A stretch of 64,000 bases of DNA, taken from Candidatus Hermodarchaeota archaeon (GTDB lineage Archaea; Asgardarchaeota; Hermodarchaeia; Hermodarchaeales; Hermodarchaeaceae). A program made the position numbers and the translations under genes. The stretch covers positions 1-64,000 of the forward strand of contig JAEOUH010000069.1 in assembly GCA_016839365.1 (NCBI GenBank), written 5' to 3'. Positions 38,113-49,346 of this stretch are shown one piece after another. The notes below the pieces were generated by a model, which saw only the letters and a list, made by a program, of their open reading frames with translations, had not been told where the DNA came from and did not search any database. How positions within the stretch are numbered: the first letter of the stretch is position 1; each line of letters opens with the position of its first letter.

Positions 38113-38736
38113 ATGACCACCCACAATCAGCATTCCAAAGAAGAATCAACAGCTCCTACGGTCTTTCCTGTCTACGTCTTTGAGAGAACTAGCAAATCAA
38201 TCTTCAACTATTGTCTCAACAAAGCCACAGGGTCATCTCCGCGTGAAGCCCTGGGCGTCGTTCTGGGCTTTCGTCGACAATGGCAGGGAGAGAAGTATAT
38301 CCGTATCACCGATTGGGCCACCGGACACGTAGAAGCCAGTATTGCCCATGCCCGGTTCACTCCAGAAGGTATCCTCGAATATCGGCTTACCCTGCACGAT
38401 CGGTATGGCAATAATCCCCATTCTCCTCGCGTCGTCGGCCTCTGGCACTCCCATCCCTTTGGTGGCGATCCGCAGTTCTCCTCAACGGATTTACGTACAT
38501 TCTTCAACACGCCTTTCTGTGCTGAGGGCAACGTCTTCTTTTTGATTGATCCCCTCAGCCGGATCTTCAAAGTGTATATGCTTCGACCACGGCCCGAACA
38601 GCCCGGCTTACAGCTAGAAAGGGTAGAATGGTGTACCTATCGTCCATCAGTCCCCGCTGGGGAACCAATGCTTCAGGATAACTCGCTAATCCATGAGGAG
38701 GAAATGCGTGATGACGAAGAAGCCCACACCGATTGA
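38113..38736 (+). CDS. JAB/MPN+ (JAMM) metallo-isopeptidase
   Basis: REALG (catalytic Glu) and VGLWHSHPFGGDPQFSSTD (HxH-x7/8-SxxD), LIDP. Confidence 0.9.
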   Translation: MTTHNQHSKEESTAPTVFPVYVFERTSKSIFNYCLNKATGSSPREALGVVLGFRRQWQGEKYIRITDWATGHVEASIAHARFTPEGILEYRLTLHDRYGNNPHSPRVVGLWHSHPFGGDPQFSSTDLRTFFNTPFCAEGNVFFLIDPLSRIFKVYMLRPRPEQPGLQLERVEWCTYRPSVPAGEPMLQDNSLIHEEEMRDDEEAHTD

Positions 38737-39574
38737 TTTAGAGTATTTTGAGAAGGATCAGCATGATCGAACACGACGCTGGTTGGGGGCTACCAATCTT
38801 GAGGCCGTTCGTCAGTCAACGGTACTGATGGTGGGCGCAGGGGCAGTCGGGAATGAGGTCTGTAAGAATCTCGGCTTGTTAGGGGTTGGGAAAATCGTTT
38901 TGGTGGATCCCGATAAAGTGGCCGCCTCCAATTTGAACCGCTGTGTTTTCTTTCGTCCAGGAGACCACGATATTAAGTTCAAAGTCGATGCAGTGGCTGA
39001 GCGGCTCCCTGAACTCGCAACCGATACAGTGGTTGAACCACATGCCATACCGATACAGGTTGCACCGGACGAAGTGTGGGATGTTGACTTAGTGTTGGTC
39101 GGTGTTGACAACCATTATGCCCGCTACCTGCTGAATGCTAAAAATCTCAGCATCGAGCCACCCTTGCCAGTGATAAATGGGGCTATGGGAAAGGACTTCG
39201 TGTCAGTTGAAGTCCTCGCGCCACCAAAGACAGCGTGCTTGGTGTGTTCGTGGAGTAAAGACTTCGTCGATCATGTCATCACCAACGAAGTACGCACACG
39301 ATGTGATCCTTTCTTTGTTGACACTATGCCCCGATTTCCCATGATTAGTTTTGTTACCTCCGTTGTGGGCGCAGTGATGGCGTGGGAAGCCACAAAGATG
39401 CTTGCTGGATTACAGCAGTGGCGTCTAACGGGGCAATGGCAGGAGGGGCTCAAACCAGCACTTGGCCGGTTCATCCAATACGACTTACACAAGCATAAAT
39501 CCATGACAGGACCAATTATGGCAAATCCACGGTGTACAGAAATTTTCTGTCGCGATAAGCGGAAACATCTCTAA
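38711..39574 (+). CDS. ThiF/E1-like ubiquitin-like activating enzyme
   Basis: VGAGAVG, DPDKVAASNLNR, VDNHYAR, TACLVC, downstream RCD (candidate catalytic Cys), C-terminal PRCTEIFC; overlaps the JAB stop. Confidence 0.92.
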   Translation: MTKKPTPIDLEYFEKDQHDRTRRWLGATNLEAVRQSTVLMVGAGAVGNEVCKNLGLLGVGKIVLVDPDKVAASNLNRCVFFRPGDHDIKFKVDAVAERLPELATDTVVEPHAIPIQVAPDEVWDVDLVLVGVDNHYARYLLNAKNLSIEPPLPVINGAMGKDFVSVEVLAPPKTACLVCSWSKDFVDHVITNEVRTRCDPFFVDTMPRFPMISFVTSVVGAVMAWEATKMLAGLQQWRLTGQWQEGLKPALGRFIQYDLHKHKSMTGPIMANPRCTEIFCRDKRKHL

Positions 39575-39578
39575 CCCG

Positions 39579-41180
39579 TTAGATTAAACCAATGGTCTTC
39601 TGCCAGACCGTTGAAGTCGGTTTCTGATCAGCCCACAAGCGTAGGTTCAGAGTTACTTTGGGGGCTCCATTTGGCATAGGGAGGTTCATCCAAATATTCA
39701 CAGGGGAATCTAATCGAGGTGCGAAGGGTTCAATAGCCACTACCTGGTCCATAAGGCCGTCTGAAACGGTTGCTGTCATCACCATTTGGTCTAACGGATG
39801 GGCACTGCTTGGTTTTGGAATCAATGAGACCTTCAAGGGCAACGTACTCCCACGTGGGACAGCATCAGGGGCGTTAACCTCTAATTCTGCGGGGGCTTCT
39901 CTCAACCGGGCGGGAACCGATTCGGGGACACCCACCACTCGTTTTACTTTCCACCCGGTCTCAATCTTGGGCTCAGAACGCTCTCCCTTTTTTCCATCAA
40001 TGGCAACAGTATCAGAGTACCAACTGACTTTGAATTCTTGGCGGACGCGAGTATCCATCCAGTTTCCGATGATAAGGGGAATATGACGGTTTGTCACTCC
40101 TAACAATCCCATGGCCCCATGCCAGGTCGGATCAACAGGGATCCATTGACCCCGAATCCAAATTTCACTCCAAGCATGACGCTCCCAGGACTGCCCATTA
40201 TAAGCATAACCCGCTTCCAATCGGGCTGGTATTTTGTTCGCGCGACACAACGCCGCAAATAAAGCGGCATATTCAGTGCAATCACCAACCTGCTTTTCGA
40301 TAGCATAAGCTGCTCCTCTTTCATACTCTTGACGAACATACCGCATCTTCTTTGTAACTGCCCTCATCGCTGCTTGTGCAAATTGTATCGGTGTTGAATG
40401 ATCTTTAGCAATATCTCGGGCAAGATCTTTGATGAGGTGGTGGTGTGATTCTATGAAATTTTCTGGTTGGGTGAACTTAACGATATTGGATGGAAAGGCT
40501 GAGTTGCGAGTTTCTGGCGGAATATTATACCGTAGTGCGCGATTCCGAATGAGAGCTGTGTACCCACAGGTAAAGGCTTCTCCAACAGCAAGACTAGCTT
40601 GATGAAATCGTATCCATTGATTTCCGATTGTATCATTCTGTTGTTGTCCATCCTTCGGAGAGAACTGGATATCAAGTACCGTTTGCCGAGGAGGCAGCGA
40701 AGGCGGAGCAGCTATTATAACTCGAACATTGCTGATTCGAGCACGTGTAATGTTCTTCACAGTCGCTGAATAATTGACCCTGTGCACTACAATTGGTGGA
40801 TGTCCTCCTTCAAAGCGAAAGCATCCCATGACATAATGATCGTCGGGAGGTCCTCGATAGGGATACTTATCGATTGCGGCTTTGATGCGGGTTTCCTGCA
40901 ATGCAACAACGATTGTATAGAATCCAGACAGCAGATTTGCCGTCAGTGGCACACTAAATTCACCTGTATTAGTCTTACCAAAATGAAACGGGACCTTACT
41001 CACCATTCGCCCGAAGGGATCAATGATGTAGACGATCCCATTGTCAACCTTTACATTCGATTTTGCTTGACCCTTTCGTTTCAACTGAATAGAAATCCGT
41101 TGACCGGCTTTAACACTCGGAACACCATCTTGCCTCGTAGGGGCGATAATTTTCAAAGACACGGGAAGATTACTCGTCAT
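39579..41180 (-). CDS. transglutaminase-like cysteine protease/ligase with flanking Ig-like beta domains
   Basis: GDCTEYAALF..LCRA..IPAR, HAWSE, WIPVDPTW (Cys-His-Asp triad); no signal peptide. Confidence 0.88.
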   Translation of the reverse strand: MTSNLPVSLKIIAPTRQDGVPSVKAGQRISIQLKRKGQAKSNVKVDNGIVYIIDPFGRMVSKVPFHFGKTNTGEFSVPLTANLLSGFYTIVVALQETRIKAAIDKYPYRGPPDDHYVMGCFRFEGGHPPIVVHRVNYSATVKNITRARISNVRVIIAAPPSLPPRQTVLDIQFSPKDGQQQNDTIGNQWIRFHQASLAVGEAFTCGYTALIRNRALRYNIPPETRNSAFPSNIVKFTQPENFIESHHHLIKDLARDIAKDHSTPIQFAQAAMRAVTKKMRYVRQEYERGAAYAIEKQVGDCTEYAALFAALCRANKIPARLEAGYAYNGQSWERHAWSEIWIRGQWIPVDPTWHGAMGLLGVTNRHIPLIIGNWMDTRVRQEFKVSWYSDTVAIDGKKGERSEPKIETGWKVKRVVGVPESVPARLREAPAELEVNAPDAVPRGSTLPLKVSLIPKPSSAHPLDQMVMTATVSDGLMDQVVAIEPFAPRLDSPVNIWMNLPMPNGAPKVTLNLRLWADQKPTSTVWQKTIGLI

Positions 41181-41565
41181 TATCTCGACCTACTTGGTCG
41201 GCTTCAGAGCGGGATTCGATTCCTTCTTCTTCTGGAAGAATAACTACTTTTCCACCCAGTGGTTGAGGTGAGCGTCGGGGGACATCGCCCAATATTCTCA
41301 CAGATGTTCGTATCTCCGTAGGTTGGCTTCCTAAATCCAATCGGGGACCCAAAAACCGAGTAAAGTGTGGAGAGTGGGCTTCACCGCCACGAACGATTGC
41401 TCCGGGACAGGTGCCTTGCCCTGATTCTAAGAAGAGGGCACGACACGAAGGACAAATATAGCTACCACAGACTGTACAAATCCACCATTGGCTCCGTGCA
41501 TTTTCAAGTGAAACTTGAGTGGCACAAGCCGCACACCGCATTTGGGATGCACCATGTATACTCAT
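41170..41565 (-). CDS. RING-like/PHD-like Zn finger with SIM-like tail (candidate E3)
   Basis: C-x2-C-x15-C-x2-C-x4-C-x2-C-x11-CP-x9-H; tail RTSVRILGD and KVVILPEEE. Confidence 0.65.
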   Translation of the reverse strand: MSIHGASQMRCAACATQVSLENARSQWWICTVCGSYICPSCRALFLESGQGTCPGAIVRGGEAHSPHFTRFLGPRLDLGSQPTEIRTSVRILGDVPRRSPQPLGGKVVILPEEEGIESRSEADQVGRDNDE

Positions 41566-41789
41566 GATGGTCTCTCCTTAAGCTCACGTCGTTTCTTTTT
41601 ACCATGAATTCTAATGGAATAATAAGGCGAAAAGTTGGGAGGTCGTTCTTCTTCAAAAGGGATGTCTCTCTCTCGGAGAATCTGAATCCGGGTTTCCCTC
41701 TCAGATTCATTCGTTGATTTTTCAGGTTCTTCCTCATACTCGTCGGGGCTTTCTTTCTCCTCTGAAGGTGGATCCGACATAATTGACAC
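41562..41789 (-). CDS. small acidic/disordered protein with SIM-like motifs
   Basis: 75 aa, Glu-rich, RIQILRE and SIRIH; 5 nt from the E2 stop and ATGA overlap with the Zn-finger gene. Confidence 0.55.
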   Translation of the reverse strand: MSIMSDPPSEEKESPDEYEEEPEKSTNESERETRIQILRERDIPFEEERPPNFSPYYSIRIHGKKKRRELKERPS

Positions 41790-41794
41790 CTCGT

Positions 41795-42547
41795 TTATCT
41801 CTCATCATCAAGAATCCGAACCGATGTACGTCTACTTGGTTTATCCAAAACGCGGGGCGCCCTTCGAACAGATTCCGCGCTTGATGATGAGGACTCAAGT
41901 ATGCGTACACGTCCCTGCCGTGAAGCCGCAGCTGGCCCATCCTTGTGCTGGGCTTCCCAGAGCTGATCAAGGGTTTCAACGATTCTGTCTGCATCTTGCT
42001 CATACCATGCCATAGCCGCCATATTTAGACCATGATCGGATTGAAACTGAGATGGTGGTTCTACTCGGTCTGGTTTTAACAATACAAAAAAGGGGAGATC
42101 TTCAAGGATACGATCTAATTCTCCACGAACCGAGTAGCAGGCATGTCCAGTCCCGCTCGCCGCCAGTCTGGGGTGATACAGGGGCGTTTCTGCTACAGGT
42201 CGAATGGCGCCTATGTTCTGAGGGTACTCTCGGGGCAAATCAAAGATGAATCGATGCTCATAACGTATGGCGCTTGTATCCTCAAGGTTTCTGGGTTTAC
42301 GAACGAAGCCGGGGAGATTACGCATAGTAAAGCGAATCCGTTTAAAAGCTCCATCGCGATATCGGGCGATGGTGGAAACGGTGAAATCGCGATTGCTCCA
42401 AGCTGTGTCTTCGCGGTGCGGAGGATCTGGATCCCACCCTCGTCGTCCAAAGAGATTGTTCATAGTGTCAAAAAATGTCTGAATCTGGGTTTCCACTCTG
42501 GCGTTAAACAGCTCAGTAGAGAATACTGGTCGGGTCACGATTATCAC
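41795..42547 (-). CDS. E2/UBC-fold ubiquitin-like conjugating enzyme
   Basis: FIFDLPREYP, TPLYHPR (HPN-like), GHAC (catalytic Cys position), LNMAAMAWY helix; low-complexity tail. Confidence 0.8.
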   Translation of the reverse strand: MIIVTRPVFSTELFNARVETQIQTFFDTMNNLFGRRGWDPDPPHREDTAWSNRDFTVSTIARYRDGAFKRIRFTMRNLPGFVRKPRNLEDTSAIRYEHRFIFDLPREYPQNIGAIRPVAETPLYHPRLAASGTGHACYSVRGELDRILEDLPFFVLLKPDRVEPPSQFQSDHGLNMAAMAWYEQDADRIVETLDQLWEAQHKDGPAAASRQGRVRILESSSSSAESVRRAPRVLDKPSRRTSVRILDDER

Positions 42548-42591
42548 CCTCAGTTCCTGTATTCGTCTCGGGTGTGTGAAGATTTTTTTTG

Positions 42592-42912
42592 TTATTGTCC
42601 GACTTCAGGGACTACATCGAGGAGGAAGAATTCATCATCGGTGATTTTTGGTTCTAGCTCCCCGAAGGTTATACCTGGACTTAGCCGGGTGGGTTCAGGG
42701 GCTTTACGGATGAGCACAAATTCTGCACGCTGGTCCCCGATTTTCGCTTTAGCCCAATCGTCAATACTGACGCCCTCATCACGGGCCTGGGTGACAAGAG
42801 TGCGGATGACTTCATCGACACGGGTATCTTCATCAATGCCGATTCGGAATTCCTTTTGACGGGGCTCAACATCGACGATGATTGAGCGCCAAAATCCTTC
42901 ATCTTTACTCAA
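42592..42912 (-). CDS. ubiquitin-like (beta-grasp) protein with a capped C-terminal glycine
   Basis: SIIVDV..KEFRIGIDEDTRVDEVIRTL...FVLIR..LSPGITFGEL..ITDDEFFLLDVVPEVG-Q; TTG start after GGTGA; first gene upstream of E2. Confidence 0.72.
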   Translation of the reverse strand: MSKDEGFWRSIIVDVEPRQKEFRIGIDEDTRVDEVIRTLVTQARDEGVSIDDWAKAKIGDQRAEFVLIRKAPEPTRLSPGITFGELEPKITDDEFFLLDVVPEVGQ

Positions 42913-43154
42913 GACTGTTCACCTACAAAGGGAGGGTCACAGCACGCACTTTAACTTTACTCGAATCTTAGACGCAAGCTCGCCCTTCTTTAATCGTGAA
43001 AGAGAATAGGTCGGCTCAAAATCACAGACTGATGGCGCTTTGTCTTTGGTTGGTGTGAAAGTTTAAGAGTGATGGACTATTGTGACTTAATGTACTTGGG
43101 CAATACTGAACATGCTAGCTGCTCAGGATAATCCGCGGGAGTGCACTCGAGATA
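42913..43154. promoter_or_regulatory. divergent promoter region between the Ubl-E2 operon and the SMC operon
   Basis: Minus-strand GTAAAGTTAAAG (~42949-42960) and plus-strand GAAAGTTTAAG (~43057-43067) resemble BRE+TATA boxes. Confidence 0.45.
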
Positions 43155-46049
43155 ATGACCACTAGGCACAAGCCATCCTTATCAACTTCACCAATCGTGT
43201 TTCGTAGTATCCGTCTAGTGAACTTTGTCATTCACCGTGATACCACAATCCAACTCGATCAATCCCCTGTCATTCTTATTACAGGCTCCAATGGAAGCGG
43301 AAAAACCTTGATTCTCGACGCCCTGTTGCTCGCAATTGGCGTTGAATCTCGAAGAGCCCAACGTCAACGCAATTCGGCTTTCATCGGTCGATTCGAGAAA
43401 TATGCTGAAGTCATTCTAGAACTTAACAACTACCAACTCAATGGGCGACGAGTCTTAAGAAGCCCCGATCCTACCATGTCTGCGCTTCTTGATAAGGACG
43501 TTGTGTCGATCCGGCTACGAGTCGATGAAACAAACCGAATATCCTATTGGTTGAATGAAAAACGATCAGTGAATGGCCATCAGATTGCTCGTAAAGATAT
43601 TCGGAAACTCTTCCAAGCTGCTGGACTCTTTGGAGATTCTCCCTTAGCTGTTACTGAGGCTGAGACTTTAGACCACTTTGCCTCCCAATCTCCACGACGA
43701 AAGTTCGAGACTCTCCTGAACGAAACTGGGCTCCGTAATTGGATGGAAAAACTCGAGGAAGCCCGTCTCCTCGTATTACAGGCAAGAGCCAATGTCAAGC
43801 CCCTCGAATACCGGATCCGCCATGAAGAACAGCGCCTCCAGGTTCTGAAGGCAGCCTATGAAGCTTTTCAACAAAAACAGCAGCTCCAACAGAGACAGAA
43901 GGATCTCGACGTTGAAGCGGCCTGGGCTGAAGTGGCTTATCGTGAGGAGCTTGCTAGCCAACTCCAATCACAAGTTACCAGTCTGGAAACCCAACTCTCC
44001 GACCAAAATGAGAAATTGGACAAGTTAGACCAAAGGAAAACCAGCTTGAAAGAGAAGTGCGAAGCGATTGAAGCAAAACGGGAAAAGCTCCTAACAACCA
44101 TGGACTCGCTACACGATGAGCGGTTGCAAGCACAAGGCCATCGGCGAGGGCTAGAGAATGAACTCAAAGGCATGCTAAATCGAACAGAACGATATACCAA
44201 GCGTCGGAAGCCCGCAACAGGCAAAATTGACGCCATTCAGAAGGAGTTAGCAACGATTATCCAGGATCGAGATGGCATCGATGATCAACTCGCTCAGGTC
44301 CGACAAGATATTGCCTCAACGGAAGAGTACCTCTTTACCAAACCCCAACGGTATCCACATTTTGAAGAGACAATACTTCGGGGCTGCCTCCGATACCGGT
44401 CTGAACTTGATAAACTCGCACTCTCTGATGCAGTGATTGGGCCCCTTTTTGCGCTCATTCGTATGAAACCGGAGTATGCACAGTACGAAACCGCGGTCAA
44501 ACTGGCCTTGGGACGCTACTCCTATGCATTCATTGCTCTGAATCGAGAGGTCTTCGTTGAGGCTAAAAACTTGTATGATCATCTCTGGCCACATGAAAAG
44601 CCAGATCTGGTGGTCGCCCGGACAAATCCCACGACCGCGATAACGCGAGATCGCCCAACGGTTTCTTTACCCGTGATTGGTTGGGCAGCTGATCTCATTG
44701 AAGGGGATATATATGCCATTAGTTTCCTAAGCCGTGTCATAAACACAGCTATCGCGGAGGAAGGAGCCGATCCCAACACGCTAGTCGATGCCTCTCAACA
44801 ACTCAATTGCAACATCATTACTAGTGAAGGAACAAGTCATTATCTCCGAATCGGCGCCTTTGCCCGACCACCCCGACCCGTTACGGTAAGTTTGGATGTC
44901 TCTCTCAACGATTTGGGACTAGCCCAGGATGGCGCTGATACACGCATTCAACTCCGTGAACTTCGTGAACAAGAAGCTAAACTGATGCGAGACCGAATGC
45001 GCATCAATTCTGAAATAAGTCAACTTCGGGCAACCCTCCAAGACCTTCAGCAAGTGCACATATCTCATCTTTCTGATGGGGAAAGAACAGCCCTGGTCAC
45101 TAGTTCTGAACATCGAGTCGCTGAATTACAACAACTGATTCTTGAACTGGAAACTGAATGCGACAGGCTTAGCCAAGATTATCAGGAATATAACTTAGAA
45201 TTATCACCGATCCATTCCCGACAGCAAAAACTATCCGAACAACTCCAAAACCTTGACCTTCGACGATCACGCCGTCAGGTTGAAATCAACCACCTCGTTG
45301 CAGAGCTCAAGCAACGCGAAGATGAATATGAGCATCTCATTAAACAAACCAAACATTTCCGTAAGGCTGCCACAGCACTGGGAGAACGCCCTCAGGCTGT
45401 TCGAAACCCTACTGCGATTCGTGATGAACAAATCCAAATCCAGGCGATGATTGATACTATCACCGCCACAGCAGACGATCGGCAAGCCTTTGAAGACCAG
45501 GAACAAGTCGTCTCCCAACTCCAAGACTACCTCAAACAACGTCAGCTCCACTTAGAAAATCTGATGACGGACGTTGATCGAAGACTTCTCGAGTGGAGAC
45601 GGCAACTCCAAGAGACGGTTGAAATCCTCAACCACCGTATGAACCAATTACTCAGCCACTTCCTCAAGCAAGTCAAACTGCTTATTCGATTCCCCGATGA
45701 ACCCAGTCGTGCGGAGCTCCACCTTCAACTTGCCATTAACCGCAAAGGCGACTGGCGGACCTATCAAGAAATGTCTGGGGGCGAACGGGTCCTAGCCACC
45801 CAGACTTTCATTTTAGCCCTACACACTCTCGCCAAGAGTCCCCTCCATGTGATTGATGAATTTACCCAACGCCTCGATGAAGCAAGCCGTGCAGCTATTC
45901 TCAGTGTTGTTCAACGCGCCCTCGATTTAACCCAAAAAGACTCACTAATTCATCCACAGTTTCTTCTAATGGCTCCCTCCACGGTCGGACTCGAGATCCC
46001 AGAGACTATGCACCACGTCGTGCTGATCAAAGGACAGGTGAAAGTCTAA
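43155..46049 (+). CDS. SMC5/6-like ATPase
   Basis: IRLVNFVIH, Walker A GSNGSGKT, long coiled coils, hinge VIGPLFALI..AVKLALG..AF, signature MSGGER, Walker B/D-loop HVIDEFTQRLD, H-loop QFLLMAP. Confidence 0.88.
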   Translation: MTTRHKPSLSTSPIVFRSIRLVNFVIHRDTTIQLDQSPVILITGSNGSGKTLILDALLLAIGVESRRAQRQRNSAFIGRFEKYAEVILELNNYQLNGRRVLRSPDPTMSALLDKDVVSIRLRVDETNRISYWLNEKRSVNGHQIARKDIRKLFQAAGLFGDSPLAVTEAETLDHFASQSPRRKFETLLNETGLRNWMEKLEEARLLVLQARANVKPLEYRIRHEEQRLQVLKAAYEAFQQKQQLQQRQKDLDVEAAWAEVAYREELASQLQSQVTSLETQLSDQNEKLDKLDQRKTSLKEKCEAIEAKREKLLTTMDSLHDERLQAQGHRRGLENELKGMLNRTERYTKRRKPATGKIDAIQKELATIIQDRDGIDDQLAQVRQDIASTEEYLFTKPQRYPHFEETILRGCLRYRSELDKLALSDAVIGPLFALIRMKPEYAQYETAVKLALGRYSYAFIALNREVFVEAKNLYDHLWPHEKPDLVVARTNPTTAITRDRPTVSLPVIGWAADLIEGDIYAISFLSRVINTAIAEEGADPNTLVDASQQLNCNIITSEGTSHYLRIGAFARPPRPVTVSLDVSLNDLGLAQDGADTRIQLRELREQEAKLMRDRMRINSEISQLRATLQDLQQVHISHLSDGERTALVTSSEHRVAELQQLILELETECDRLSQDYQEYNLELSPIHSRQQKLSEQLQNLDLRRSRRQVEINHLVAELKQREDEYEHLIKQTKHFRKAATALGERPQAVRNPTAIRDEQIQIQAMIDTITATADDRQAFEDQEQVVSQLQDYLKQRQLHLENLMTDVDRRLLEWRRQLQETVEILNHRMNQLLSHFLKQVKLLIRFPDEPSRAELHLQLAINRKGDWRTYQEMSGGERVLATQTFILALHTLAKSPLHVIDEFTQRLDEASRAAILSVVQRALDLTQKDSLIHPQFLLMAPSTVGLEIPETMHHVVLIKGQVKV

Positions 46050-46840
46050 TGATAACTAATGATACTTCTACATTTCTCCGTGCCTTTCCGCGCCGCAAGG
46101 CCTGGTATGACACTTTCCAATACAACTACAAGCGAACACGACTATCATCTTTTGGAACCAAAGGGATAGTAATTACGCTATGGAATCTGACCAAAAAGTA
46201 TGAGGTTGCCCTAAAACAGCACGATACGTTCCCGATTAAGGAAGCGGAGATTGACCGTGAAGAAGTTGCCGATGCATACCGCGTCCTTGATACCCCCTGG
46301 GAACGAACTCTCGATGGGCGTTTCTACTATAATCTCGCTTCAATGCAACATCACCGGGATTCTCAATTGGCTGCTCCTGAAATCGCTCCCGAGGAATGGA
46401 TTTCCCAATTTGCCAATGAGGTCAAACGACGCGCGACTCCGGTACTCTTTTTAATTAATCAAGAGCGGACCATCCCACCTTTCCAATTGCCTCCTGCTGA
46501 TTCGCCGGTCGCAATGGACGATGCCCCTACCCAAGATGATAAACAGGCTATGCGCAAACACCGTATCTCTTATGAAGAGATCTCCATAGACGCTCTCGGC
46601 GCTAGAAGGGCGGATATCCTGAAACGGCTACAAGGCAAACGATACAACTATGCAGCCCTATCCGAAATCCTAACCAACTGGGAACTCGATTTACTCAGCC
46701 AGATGATTCGGGATAACATCTGTCCTGCAACGTTCGAAAAAACGGCTATCATTTTTCGACACCCTCCACCTAAAACAAATCCTGCTTTCACTGCTGTTGC
46801 CATTACCGCACAAAACCATGAGGAGGTTCCTCGAAAGTGA
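46049..46840 (+). CDS. putative kleisin-like subunit (ScpA/Nse4 position)
   Basis: TAATG-coupled to SMC and GTGA-coupled to the KITE; helical N-terminus, Pro/acidic linker, possible C-terminal winged helix; call is mainly positional. Confidence 0.45.
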   Translation: MITNDTSTFLRAFPRRKAWYDTFQYNYKRTRLSSFGTKGIVITLWNLTKKYEVALKQHDTFPIKEAEIDREEVADAYRVLDTPWERTLDGRFYYNLASMQHHRDSQLAAPEIAPEEWISQFANEVKRRATPVLFLINQERTIPPFQLPPADSPVAMDDAPTQDDKQAMRKHRISYEEISIDALGARRADILKRLQGKRYNYAALSEILTNWELDLLSQMIRDNICPATFEKTAIIFRHPPPKTNPAFTAVAITAQNHEEVPRK

Positions 46841-47484
46841 CCTCAGATCCAATACCTACTGACACCATCTCTTCCACAAGCGAGGATTCAGAAGAAGAGG
46901 TGTTAGAGCAACGTCATCTCATTGGTCAGCTCTTTGCCGCCCTCACAGCAAGGTTTCGGAATGAGGAAGGCCAACTCAGCATCGGGGTCAAACGGCAAGA
47001 TCTTTTAGAAGCCCTTCATATCAATAAGACTGGCTTAGTCCGCCTCCTCGATTTACTCCGCCAGCAAATATCTCCCCTGGGGCTAGAATTGGTTGAATAT
47101 CGAATGGGACGGGACACGCTCTATTGTGTTCGAACCATTTACGGAGTTCCTGGCGAGCTCACTGATCCTGAATACGCCGTATTAGGAGTCATCATTTCCA
47201 CTGTAGAACAGGTGAGTAAACTCCATCGTCCACGCCGGGTGGCCACAAAAGACATCGAAACAATCCTTGTAGCCCGTGGGCGCCTCTCCCGCTACCAACT
47301 CGATCGTATTTTACGACGACTAACCGAGCTAGGCTATATTACGCGAACCGCACGACGAATTACTTACGGTCCACGACTCGAATTGGAATTTGATGCTGAA
47401 CGCCGTGAAGCCATCGCCAGCGCAGCAACCCTGTATCTCGCAGGGGCTACAGCTGATTCGGAGGAAGACCTGAATGAAACTTGA
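46837..47484 (+). CDS. KITE protein (tandem winged helix, Nse1/Nse3-MAGE/ScpB-like)
   Basis: LRQQISPLGLELVE, LTDPEYAVLGVII, LDRILRRLTELGYI, ITYGPRLELEF (GPR..E motif of Nse1/MAGE WH-B). Confidence 0.72.
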   Translation: MTSDPIPTDTISSTSEDSEEEVLEQRHLIGQLFAALTARFRNEEGQLSIGVKRQDLLEALHINKTGLVRLLDLLRQQISPLGLELVEYRMGRDTLYCVRTIYGVPGELTDPEYAVLGVIISTVEQVSKLHRPRRVATKDIETILVARGRLSRYQLDRILRRLTELGYITRTARRITYGPRLELEFDAERREAIASAATLYLAGATADSEEDLNET

Positions 47485-47935
47485 TCTCTCCACCGTTGGC
47501 ATCAGTTGTGTAGCCTGTGGAACCCGAATCACACTTGAGGAGGCAATCCAGAAGGAATGGCACCAATGTTTACGGTGTCAGTTCTTCATTGATCCCCATT
47601 GTCTTGGAATTGTCCAAAACACCATGGGTGGGGTCTGCCCCTCATTTAGCCAAGGAGTGACCCGTCATTCCTTGCAAGCTGCTGATATTCCTACAGAACA
47701 GATCCTCATATTCGTCAAAGATCAATATCAGAAAGGTCACGGAGGTGCTCTCATCGACTCCTTATTTTATACCAGACCTTCAGCTTTAAAGAAACCACAA
47801 CACCCAAGTCAAATGGAATCGAACTCTGAAGAACCTCTCACCCGAGAAGAAATCTGGCAACGCTTTGGACTCGTTTTAGTGCAGCGGTCCCAAGGTAAAT
47901 GGAAAACTTGGGAAAAAGTTGGCAGTACTAGCTGA
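47474..47935 (+). CDS. RING-like Zn finger protein (paralog of 41170-41565; Nse1-RING-like)
   Basis: C-x2-C-x16-C-x2-C-x4-D-x2-C-x11-CP-x8-H; overlaps the KITE stop. Confidence 0.65.
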   Translation: MKLDLSTVGISCVACGTRITLEEAIQKEWHQCLRCQFFIDPHCLGIVQNTMGGVCPSFSQGVTRHSLQAADIPTEQILIFVKDQYQKGHGGALIDSLFYTRPSALKKPQHPSQMESNSEEPLTREEIWQRFGLVLVQRSQGKWKTWEKVGSTS

Positions 47936-47937
47936 TA

Positions 47938-48369
47938 TTGTCCAAGGGACATAAACTATTTACCTATCAACCACTCATGCCTTCCTATACGAATTGGCTT
48001 GCATCATTTTTGGAGTTGATGGGTTTGGGTGACGAAAAGGCTCCCAGTTGGGTAAAACACGCCGTTCGGCGTTGGAAGCAATTCTATAATGAAATTCAGT
48101 TCATCGATGGACAAATTGATACTGCAAATCCGTTGAGTGTAATTTTCCGAAATGAAGCTCTCTTAAATCAAGTAGTATCCCAATCACAGGCTGTCACCTC
48201 ACCCATTGAACCAACCCTTTCAAAGAAAGAAGAATCAGCTCCATCTCAACCTGAAAAGACTCCTTCGCCAAATCCCGAAAAAAAGCAGCGCAAAGGATGG
48301 TTCATTTCTAAACTCAAAGACCTCCAATACCTATTCAATCGCCCTCTTTGGTCCTGGGATTCTTTCTAG
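47938..48369 (+). CDS. hypothetical protein, last gene of the SMC operon
   Basis: Starts 2 nt after the upstream stop; helical N-terminus, Pro/Ser linker, aromatic C-terminal helix. Confidence 0.6.
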   Translation: MSKGHKLFTYQPLMPSYTNWLASFLELMGLGDEKAPSWVKHAVRRWKQFYNEIQFIDGQIDTANPLSVIFRNEALLNQVVSQSQAVTSPIEPTLSKKEESAPSQPEKTPSPNPEKKQRKGWFISKLKDLQYLFNRPLWSWDSF

Positions 48370-49346
48370 ATGGGATCATCCAAACCCATTTTGGAACGAA
48401 TCTTCTCGATGACATCTTCTCCCATCCGCTTCGTTTCTGCTGACTCCGTCGTAGGCTCATCCTGCACATCCTCAGACAGTTGAGGGAGACCCGCTAGTTT
48501 TCTCACGATACCAGAAATTGCATGCTTTGCCACAGAAACCTCAGAACCGCCAGAGAGTAGCACCACCAACCGTCCCTCACAGACTTCTTCCGCTGCCTGC
48601 ATCAAAATATCTGTCATTGCAGGAAAGGCACGCAACGAAAGATTAAACCCACCATAGTCTAGGGCATGGGCATCATGACCCATGTTCCACAAGATCATCT
48701 CAGGGCGAATCCGCCTGGCCCAAGGCAGCGCTAAACGACGTACGGCTTCGACAAAGGAGTCATCACTACTCGAACTTGGGAAAGGGACATCCACATGCCG
48801 ATGTGTCACCGTATCCAGGCTTTCCCGGAAACTCGCCTCGAAGTTTAAATGGTATACTCCTTCATCATCCCCAAGGACATCACGAGTTCCATCCCCTGGA
48901 TGAGGATCCGTATCAACAATGAAAAAACGATTAACTCCATGCATATGTTGCAAATTTCGAACAAGTAAAGCAGAGTTGTTGTAATAGCAAAAACCCCAGG
49001 ATGAACCACGACTAGCGTGGTGCCCAGCACAGCCAGTAAAGGCAAAAGCATTGGCTGCCTCGCCAATCCAAACCGCCTCACCTGCTCTTACCGCGGATCC
49101 CCCCGACACGAGTGAAGCAGAATCATATCCTGATCTTCTAACATGTTGAATGTGATCAGGGGTGTGCACCTGCAGGAGTAAATCCTCACCTACTCTGGGC
49201 GCTTCTTCCAAAATAACCTGAGTAGTCTCCAATGTTCCCGAATCGCGTAAATAGTCAAGTGCCGGTTGTACACGACCAGCTAGCACCGGGTACCCTTCAA
49301 CTGCCATTAAAGGATGGTAGAGTACGAGTGTTGGCTTCTTTTTCAT
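48366..49346 (-). CDS. histone deacetylase/AcuC family protein
   Basis: VHTPDHI, AGHHA, GFCYYNN, DTDPHPGDGT, GHDAHALD, LSGGS. Confidence 0.9.
   Translation of the reverse strand: MKKKPTLVLYHPLMAVEGYPVLAGRVQPALDYLRDSGTLETTQVILEEAPRVGEDLLLQVHTPDHIQHVRRSGYDSASLVSGGSAVRAGEAVWIGEAANAFAFTGCAGHHASRGSSWGFCYYNNSALLVRNLQHMHGVNRFFIVDTDPHPGDGTRDVLGDDEGVYHLNFEASFRESLDTVTHRHVDVPFPSSSSDDSFVEAVRRLALPWARRIRPEMILWNMGHDAHALDYGGFNLSLRAFPAMTDILMQAAEEVCEGRLVVLLSGGSEVSVAKHAISGIVRKLAGLPQLSEDVQDEPTTESAETKRMGEDVIEKIRSKMGLDDPI

Follow-up and report, generated by a model that had tools for sequence, protein, structure and literature searches.

Does the tie between a chromosome-organizing complex and protein-tagging ligases, as found in eukaryotic SMC5/6, have a counterpart in archaea? 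The eukaryotic structural maintenance of chromosomes (SMC) 5/6 complex comprises Smc5-Smc6, the kleisin Nse4, the KITE proteins Nse1 and Nse3, a RING-like ubiquitin ligase contained in Nse1, and the SP-RING SUMO ligase Nse2/Mms21. No other SMC complex has ubiquitin and SUMO ligases as built-in subunits. The purpose and the origin of these subunits are standing questions, and the latest evolutionary study regards them as eukaryotic additions. The locus studied here comes from Candidatus Hermodarchaeota archaeon, a member of the Asgardarchaeota. It lies on contig JAEOUH010000069.1 of GenBank assembly GCA_016839365.1, of which positions 1 to 64,000 of the forward strand were analysed (64,000 nucleotides, hereafter called the window). 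Positions 38113-48369 of the window hold an SMC operon and, diverging from it, an operon for a ubiquitin-like (Ubl) conjugation system with a Ubl candidate and an E2 conjugating enzyme, next to genes for an E1 activating enzyme and a JAB protease. An initial annotation of this DNA had proposed an SMC5/6-like complex tied to a dedicated Ubl-E1-E2-JAB system. Our analysis supports this proposal by the folds of the E2 and of a RING-like protein named ZnF2, by three different gene arrangements, by a nested distribution of the E2, and by a complete gene set in Planctomycetota. We consider it likely that a second SMC complex, of SMC5/6-related type, and a private Ubl pathway form one dedicated two-part system.

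The host assembly is 2.2 Mb in size and 84% complete. A canonical operon of Smc (~1195 aa), ScpA and ScpB is found on contig C15 of the same genome, and a canonical ubiquitin gene flanked by two UQ_con-type genes is found outside the window at C71:38400-40685. Hence, the studied locus represents a second SMC complex and a second Ubl system of this organism. It contains 12 genes and a control region, with coordinates that agree base for base with the list of open reading frames (ORFs):

38113..38736, plus strand: JAB/JAMM metalloprotease, predicted Ubl-processing and deconjugating enzyme (Pfam Prok-JAB 1.3e-8; invariant motif)
38693..39574, plus strand: minimal E1, a ThiF/MoeB-type adenylyltransferase of 293 aa (Pfam ThiF 1.5e-34)
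39579..41180, minus strand: transglutaminase-fold Cys-His-Asp protein of 533 aa (Pfam Transglut_core 4e-24, residues 252-351)
41170..41565, minus strand: ZnF1, RING-like zinc finger and ZnF2 paralogue, tail with motifs like SUMO-interacting motifs (SIM-like) (blastp against ZnF2)
41562..41789, minus strand: acid75, an acidic, probably disordered protein of 75 aa (conserved position directly after E2)
41795..42547, minus strand: E2, conjugating enzyme of the ubiquitin-conjugating (UBC) fold with a disordered tail (AF2 model, Foldseek, VIA)
42592..42912, minus strand: Ubl candidate of 106 aa, C-terminal end V-G plus one residue (invariant terminal Gly; always beside E2)
42913..43154, no strand: divergent control region of 242 bp with two BRE/TATA-like boxes (12 orthologous spacers)
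43155..46049, plus strand: second, short-arm SMC ATPase of 964 aa (Pfam SMC_N 3.2e-22)
46049..46840, plus strand: kleisin-position protein of 263 aa (position and published operon description)
46837..47484, plus strand: KITE-like winged-helix protein of 215 aa (winged-helix and sub-threshold profile matches)
47474..47935, plus strand: ZnF2, RING/U-box-like zinc finger with a C-terminal beta domain (AF2, VIA, eight ligands)
47938..48369, plus strand: hyp143, poorly conserved trailing ORF (some genomes of the genus only)

The leftward operon on the minus strand has the order Ubl-E2-acid75-ZnF1-transglutaminase, and the rightward operon on the plus strand has the order SMC-kleisin-KITE-ZnF2-hyp143. 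The layout described in the initial annotation is borne out by the ORF coordinates. The spacer between the diverging operons, given there as ~240 bp, measures 242 bp (42913-43154), and the stop and start codons of the rightward operon, given as overlapping or near-abutting, overlap by 1, 4, and 11 nt. The 3' end of the JAB gene overlaps the start of the E1 gene, both on the plus strand. This JAB-E1 pair converges on the leftward operon as had been stated, with 4 nt between the stop codons of E1 (plus) and transglutaminase (minus). The spacer contains one box per operon direction, at 42947-42960 (read on the minus strand) and at 43055-43070 (plus strand). Across 12 orthologous spacers, the two boxes vary little or not at all, and their common core is AAAGTT(T)AA(A)G. 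They look like a pair of similar archaeal BRE/TATA elements and may act as promoters.

To what extent are the two operons kept together in other Asgard archaea? A KITE profile was run over 400 Asgard genomes, of which 63 were positive, and 20-kb regions were then read with local hidden Markov models. In the host family (f1), the whole cluster is kept in 13 genomes, and the orthologous loci include that of Candidatus Hermodarchaeum yapensis. The SMC-kleisin-KITE-ZnF2 core is present in every KITE-positive family that was read (f1, f4, f5, f17, f18, f20, and f21; the contigs of f10 stop before ZnF2) and also in Kariarchaeaceae and Hodarchaeales contigs. Across four families, three arrangements link the Ubl genes with this core. 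The "Heimdallarchaeota" metagenome-assembled genomes (MAGs) of family f21 hold a co-directional string of SMC-kleisin-KITE-ZnF2-JAB-E1-Ubl-E2-acid75 with gaps of -4 to 128 nt, and in one of these genomes ZnF1 and the transglutaminase gene follow 6.8 kb further on. Family f5 has SMC-kleisin-KITE-ZnF2-JAB-E1 followed by housekeeping genes, with Ubl-E2-acid75-transglutaminase on another contig. In family f20, ZnF2-JAB is at a contig end and Ubl-E2-(acid75)-transglutaminase is on short contigs. The question raised with the initial annotation, whether SMC and Ubl genes ever adjoin in related genomes, is thus answered by the f21 string and by the ZnF2-JAB junctions of f5 and f20; JAB orthologues adjoin ZnF2 in all three families. 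This recurrence in rearranged form in other families means that the arrangement of the locus is not due to chance. The distribution of the E2 is nested within that of the KITE. An E2 profile finds 32 of the 400 Asgard genomes, every one of them from a KITE-positive family (18/18 in f1, 1/1 in f5, 2/2 in f20, and 10/12 in f21).

The same set of genes is found in Planctomycetota, where one genome per species was scanned. Ubl-E2 pairs of 37-43% identity are present in five Planctomycetota MAGs, among housekeeping genes and with no SMC gene nearby. Orthologues of the other components were identified as well: the kleisin-KITE pair (E about 1e-55), SMC (26-30% identity over the full length), ZnF2 (E 1e-36 to 1e-39), JAB (E about 1e-60), and E1 (45-49% identity). 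SMC, kleisin-KITE, ZnF2, JAB, E1, and Ubl-E2 were each found in all five members searched for them (loci L135-L153), and the four genomes searched with every query (G400, G402, G404, and G405) each hold the whole set. Within one order of nine genomes (G400-G408), six have both E2 and KITE, one has KITE only, two have neither, and none has E2 only. The set is complete though scattered, and this provides independent support for functional dependence among its members. The pattern suggests inter-domain transfer of the whole set between Asgard archaea and Planctomycetota, in either direction. The gene after KITE in Planctomycetota was considered as a ZnF2 candidate and rejected, as its motifs are those of an ECF-sigma-like protein.

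A peculiarity of the Planctomycetota Ubl-E2 pairs is their reading frame. At four loci (L085:9588-10528, L086:9612-10546, L087:1862-2799, and L089:4999-5924), the Ubl ORF reads on past V-V-G into an extension that is homologous to the N-terminal helix of the Asgard E2, and the rest of the E2 lies in another frame. A stretch of ten A marks the frame switch in L085, L086, L087, and L089. The Ubl and E2 ORFs of the fifth MAG (L088) are also in different frames, and a common run of A was not seen there. The arrangement resembles a fusion of Ubl and E2 that arises through programmed frameshifting or through slippage during transcription, or else a recurrent homopolymer assembly error.

Is the Ubl half a genuine conjugation pathway? 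Its best characterized member is the E2, whose AF2 model, built on 18 homologues, has a pLDDT of 77 with a core above 90. A Foldseek search against solved structures returned more than 40 rows at E <= 0.001 with a probability of 1.0, almost every one a UBC-fold E2, and VIA gave Z of 8.0-8.4 over 135-146 residues with many E2 families tied. All sequences compared, from Hermodarchaeota to a Heimdall-group family, keep H125-P126-R127 and C137 unchanged. The E2 label, first given from the sequence, therefore holds by model, structural match, and the invariant HPR...Cys. Pfam UQ_con gives sub-threshold matches only, in relatives of this E2. The top Foldseek rows among E2s are Ubc9; SUMO specificity was considered on this ground and rejected, since all E2 families tie at Z ~8. 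The last 45 residues of the E2 are disordered and contain two to three copies of [RK]-[IV]-x-I-[IL] followed by acidic or Ser residues, and these motifs are kept in both Hermodarchaeota and a Heimdall-group family. Similar motifs are seen in the tails of acid75 and ZnF1. In their sequence, the tail motifs of E2, acid75, and ZnF1 (window positions 41795-41930, 41562-41789, and 41170-41330, respectively) resemble SUMO-interacting motifs.

The Ubl candidate is the most conserved protein of the locus, with 85-98% identity within f1, and it is always beside E2 in the Asgard families and the Planctomycetota loci. It has an invariant terminal Gly, beyond which come 0-3 variable residues; the proteins of f21 and of one f1 member end exactly at V-G. 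A terminal Gly with a variable tail is the classic signature of a processed modifier. The f5 orthologue has weak matches to RA and YukD only (E about 0.07), and a profile of the family found nothing significant among solved structures. The Pfam Ufm1 model, run over the genome, had no match at this locus, so the Ubl could not be linked to the Asgard Ufm1 homologues (PMC12962969). The JAB protein has E45, H112, H114, S123, and D126 invariant (A12), which corresponds to a metal site of Glu plus H-x-H-x7-S-x2-D. The ThiF match of the E1 spans residues 31-270 and identifies an adenylation domain, the kind characterized by a nucleotide-binding GxGxxG motif, and its matches to the NCBIfam ThiF, MoeB, and SAMP-E1 models are all below cut-off. 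At the Asgard loci that were read, E1 is always paired with JAB. Ubl, E2, kleisin, KITE, and acid75 have no match at curated thresholds in Pfam, NCBIfam, or PADLOC.

ZnF2, the fourth gene of the SMC operon, is the component that could join the two halves. Its AF2 model has a pLDDT of ~90 at residues 1-88; a disordered linker comes next and then, at 122-148, a three-stranded sheet. Eight ligand positions are conserved (C12, C/H15, C32, C35, C/D40, C43, C55, and H65) with a spacing of C-x2-C...C-x2-C-x4-[C/D]-x2-C, and W29 is invariant. Ligase domains of the RING, U-box, or SP-RING kind make up ~45 of the 50 best VIA rows, all at Z <= 5.0, and include RNF4, TRAF6, Ring1b/Bmi1, APC11, Prp19, CHIP, Rad18, Slx1, and Nse2/Mms21; Nse1 is not among these 50 rows. 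The model thus supports, and does not prove, a RING-type cross-brace fold of ZnF2. A Foldseek search with this model gave no match below E 0.6, and the ZnF2 profile found nothing significant among solved structures. ZnF2 always adjoins KITE in Asgard archaea, even in Hodarchaeales, where the operon is split into SMC-kleisin and a divergent KITE-ZnF2 and the latter two stay together. A complex prediction for KITE (A8) and ZnF2 (A9) scored 0.06 against a mark of 0.32, a "no answer" result that is evidence neither way. Fingers of the ZnF2 family are also found fused to Ras-family GTPase domains, and other fusions of the family are coiled-coil proteins with a winged-helix-like segment (P0111, P0113, P0121 / P0098-P0108, P0127, listed for both kinds of fusion).

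Walker A, signature, and Walker B motifs are all intact in the SMC protein. Throughout the family, the Q-loop Gln is missing, and a T-E/G-E type motif is found instead. In a quick tree of Asgard sequences, built with no eukaryotic ones and with an unresolved internal backbone, 19 non-canonical SMCs form a clade apart from four canonical Asgard Smc proteins (SH-aLRT 100). The SMC of the locus scores far below the NCBIfam SMC cut-offs. The placement of this SMC type with SMC5/6 has been published (van Hooff, Raas, Tromer and Eme, bioRxiv 10.1101/2024.01.07.573240). Each operon has one SMC gene, and the one further SMC of the genome is the canonical one; a pair of genes for a heterodimer of the Smc5-Smc6 type was thus not found, and a homodimer is to be expected from the single gene. 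The kleisin-position gene always lies between SMC and KITE, or before KITE. Its profile matched nothing significant among solved structures, and its designation as a putative kleisin is based on this gene position and on the published operon description. The KITE protein has a winged-helix match (MarR_2) in 9 of 19 members, together with sub-threshold matches to SMC_Nse1 (3/19, best 0.0021), MAGE (1/19, 0.0012), and ScpB (1/19, 0.054). Comparison of the KITE family with the host ScpB family by hhalign gave a weak colinear match (P 0.049), and the KITE profile had no significant match among solved structures. The SMC complex is probably composed of an SMC homodimer, the kleisin-position protein, an Nse1/3-like KITE, and the RING-like ZnF2.

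The remaining proteins of the leftward operon are acid75, ZnF1, and the transglutaminase-fold protein. Acid75 has no family match and is conserved directly after E2 in f1, f5, f20, f21, and one Planctomycetota locus. ZnF1 has the 8-ligand pattern in common with ZnF2 and weak matches to Pfam zf-UDP, FYVE, and RING-type models. The two fingers are 33% identical over 58 residues (blastp, E 4e-8), in keeping with the earlier observation that paralogous zinc fingers are present in both operons. By inspection of its translation, the transglutaminase-fold protein has Cys, His, and Asp in the expected contexts. Its gene follows Ubl-E2-acid75 in f1, f5, and f20 and is near them in f21. Within one genus it occurs in a long form of ~533 aa and a short form of ~290 aa (L012, L014, L015, L016, and L018 compared with window 39579-41180). 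In f4, which has no Ubl, E2, or orthologous JAB, five genera have a transglutaminase homologue at a distance of 0.8-7 kb from the SMC operon (L024-L034 and L047-L049; closest at L030:4714-6339). The transglutaminase-fold protein may relate to the SMC complex itself.

How would such a system work? We infer complex formation, ligase activity, targets, and function, and propose the following sequence of events. The JAB protease would trim the residue or residues beyond the terminal Gly of the Ubl, and E1 would adenylate the Ubl and hand it to Cys137 of the E2. ZnF2 on the SMC complex, and perhaps ZnF1 too, would serve as RING-type adaptors for E2~Ubl and aim it at the SMC complex itself or at proteins present at captured DNA. 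The SIM-like tails of E2, acid75, and ZnF1 may bind the Ubl non-covalently, and JAB, the transglutaminase-fold protein, or both may reverse or cross-link the marks. In this scheme, the system would operate in the manner of eukaryotic SMC5/6 with its ligases.

Several results weigh against the reading of the locus as one SMC5/6-related, two-part system. The flanking genes of f1 (g489, the deacetylase-like gene, and g403) are also syntenic, so the 13 genomes of this family count as a single observation. Family f4 has KITE in 28 of 31 genomes and E2 in none of the 31. A profile search also found no E2 in the KITE-positive families f17, f18, f10, and f15. The f4 and f17 genomes searched have no Ubl, those of f4 have only distant JAB matches, and no Ubl genes are near the Hodarchaeales locus. 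The presence of the SMC operon in families without E2 or Ubl indicates that the SMC complex does not need the Ubl system; since ZnF2 persists where the Ubl cascade is absent, it would primarily serve the SMC complex, and perhaps not as a ligase. The Planctomycetota genes are dispersed, either on different contigs or 185 kb apart on one contig. At the level of single proteins, a phmmer search of solved structures did not separate Smc, SMC3, and SMC6 and gave SMC5/6 no higher rank than Smc or SMC3. Among 19 kleisin-position proteins, Pfam gave no relevant match, and hhalign found no similarity between this family and the host ScpA family. The same method found nothing between the Ubl family and the host canonical or Asgard ubiquitin family. 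The structural matches of ZnF2 are weak (Z <= 5.0; Foldseek E > 0.6), and its profile, run against 1.84 billion proteins, gave 72 matches that include neither Nse1 nor a KITE-zinc finger fusion. With one SMC gene in place of two and with a putative clade placement, kleisin type, and ligase activity, the complex is best described as SMC5/6-like in architecture and logic, not as a member of SMC5/6.

Could the two operons be neighbours only, with the Ubl system serving proteostasis or another pathway and sharing no more than a neighbourhood or a regulator with the SMC genes? The conserved flanks in f1 would allow the adjacency to be inherited gene order, the SMC operon occurs without the Ubl system in f4, f17, and f18, and the parts are dispersed in Planctomycetota. 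However, the linkage is seen in three arrangements and four families, including the nine-gene string and the JAB-E1 pair at the end of the SMC operon with Ubl-E2 elsewhere. The E2 is confined to KITE-positive families among the 400 Asgard genomes and to KITE-positive genomes among the nine Planctomycetota, and paralogous zinc fingers are present in both halves. We therefore regard mere neighbourhood as quite improbable. An even smaller chance, very slight in our estimate, is given to a sulfur-carrier pathway of the MoaD/ThiS/SAMP type, in which E1, JAB, and the small protein would not act in protein conjugation. The E1 is indeed a minimal ThiF/MoeB-type enzyme with ThiF and MoeB as its best NCBIfam models, all far below cut-off, but the set also includes two RING-like proteins and an E2 of UBC fold whose catalytic Cys is conserved. 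None of the adjacent genes is a sulfurtransferase, molybdopterin, or thiamine gene, and the Ubl ends in a single Gly with a tail predicted to be cleavable.

A further alternative, which we think unlikely, is defence against plasmids or viruses, with an SMC DNA sensor similar to that of Wadjet or Lamassu coupled to Ubl conjugation similar to that of Bil and CBASS Cap2/Cap3. PADLOC models for LmuB (1.8e-21), JetC, JAB, and the E1 part of Cap2-like E1-E2 fusions match the SMC, JAB, and E1 proteins, there are weak NCBIfam matches to the 6A-MBL cap2_3 model, and the set appears to have moved between Asgard archaea and Planctomycetota. However, these PADLOC matches are to generic domains, and none was obtained for kleisin, KITE, ZnF2, E2, Ubl, or the transglutaminase. 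The cluster contains no nuclease or other effector gene and no JetD- or LmuA-type partner, and no full set of defence components was found in it. It is single-copy and near-universal in its families (SMC in 17/18 and E2 in 18/18 genomes of f1, 28/31 in f4, and 10/12 in f21), and it occupies a stable site among housekeeping genes, not a variable island. We do not recognise it as a defence system. Because restriction of episomes is also a function of eukaryotic SMC5/6, the defence reading overlaps with that of an SMC5/6-like complex; by analogy, an anti-episome role as in human SMC5/6 is possible.

Compared with eukaryotic SMC5/6, the two-part system has the same predicted SMC-kleisin-KITE organization, a putative RING-type finger, a putative Ubl pathway with a UBC-fold E2, and short arms. 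The KITE and RING-like genes are always adjacent, which mirrors the domain order of Nse1. The differences are a single SMC gene, the missing Q-loop Gln, and no Nse5/6 seen. In addition, the RING-like protein has a gene of its own and carries a further beta domain, and no relationship of its sequence to Nse1 or Nse2 could be detected. The locus encodes its own modifier, E1, and E2, which differ from the canonical ubiquitin system of the host, and a transglutaminase-fold protein and an acidic mini-protein are added. SMC5/6-related SMC-kleisin-kite operons have been described in TACK and Asgard archaea, and the Nse1 RING was reported to be absent from archaeal kites and to be a eukaryotic innovation (van Hooff et al., bioRxiv 10.1101/2024.01.07.573240). 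The locus resembles those operons in being a second SMC operon beside canonical Smc-ScpAB and in the predicted Nse1/3-like archetype of its kite. Those operons have three genes, whereas here an invariant RING-like fourth gene is present and a Ubl cascade is linked in four families. This fourth gene and the Ubl link were not found in van Hooff et al., in Yoshinaga and Inagaki (PMC8665677), or in full-text literature searches. The view that the gene combination had not been described before thus applies to the RING-like subunit and the Ubl link, but not to the SMC-kleisin-kite part, which is already published (van Hooff et al.).

Eukaryote-like operons of E1, E2, RING-E3, and Rpn11 are known from Caldiarchaeum and Asgard archaea (Hennell James et al., 2017, PMC5654768; Hatano et al., 2022, PMC9192718). 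They likewise encode Ubl, E1, UBC-fold E2, a small RING-type protein, and a JAMM protease together. In contrast to these, the canonical system of the present host is separate (contig C71), the locus scores below the Pfam ubiquitin and UQ_con thresholds, its Ubl has a single terminal Gly, and it is tied to an SMC operon and not to ESCRT. Bil and CBASS Cap2/Cap3 are likewise prokaryotic sets in which a minimal E1 and an E2 come with a JAB protease and a Ubl, and there are weak PADLOC matches for the E1 and JAB of the locus. Here, however, E1 and E2 are separate genes and not a Cap2-type fusion, there is no cyclase or effector, RING-like partners and the SMC linkage are present, and inheritance looks vertical and core-like. 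Wadjet (JetABCD), Lamassu, and MukBEF-type systems similarly have an SMC ATPase with kleisin and KITE partners in one operon. They differ from the present locus, which has no PADLOC matches to JetA, JetB, or JetD and no nuclease, and which has the RING-like subunit and the Ubl cascade instead.

Three observations concern neighbouring genes. Hyp143 does occupy the last position of the rightward operon (47938-48369), as was initially annotated, but it does not belong to the conserved set. Only part of the genus has it, at 41-77% identity, it was not found in other families, and by its sequence conservation it is probably not part of the system. A 326-aa ORF on the minus strand (window 48366-49346) converges on the SMC operon and is syntenic within f1; from its motifs, it looks like a histone-deacetylase or acetoin-utilisation-type deacetylase. 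On a Hodarchaeales contig (L128, JBSWQY010000054.1), a cluster of SMC_N, Metallophos, and DUF87 genes, which looks like Rad50-Mre11-HerA, lies ~1.5 kb from the split operon, with an actin gene further along.

What does the locus mean for the origin of SMC5/6? It provides a concrete hypothesis for the origin of Nse1, namely that the KITE and ZnF2 pair is the unfused ancestor of the KITE-RING protein Nse1, with the coupling of SMC5/6 to an E2 of the ubiquitin/SUMO type already present in the Asgard ancestor of eukaryotes. We hold this tentatively and consider it less probable than its opposite. If it is true, the ligase arm of SMC5/6 would be an archaeal inheritance and not a eukaryotic innovation. 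The locus also represents a new compact Ubl system with a single terminal Gly on the modifier, a UBC-fold E2 with SIM-like tails, and a transglutaminase-fold partner. With about eleven small proteins and one SMC, it offers a minimal study system for in vitro tests of an SMC-coupled ligase, whose testable roles include self-modification upon DNA capture and the marking of trapped DNA-bound proteins. The link between SMC5/6 and protein-tagging ligases that is seen in eukaryotes may thus be older than eukaryotes.

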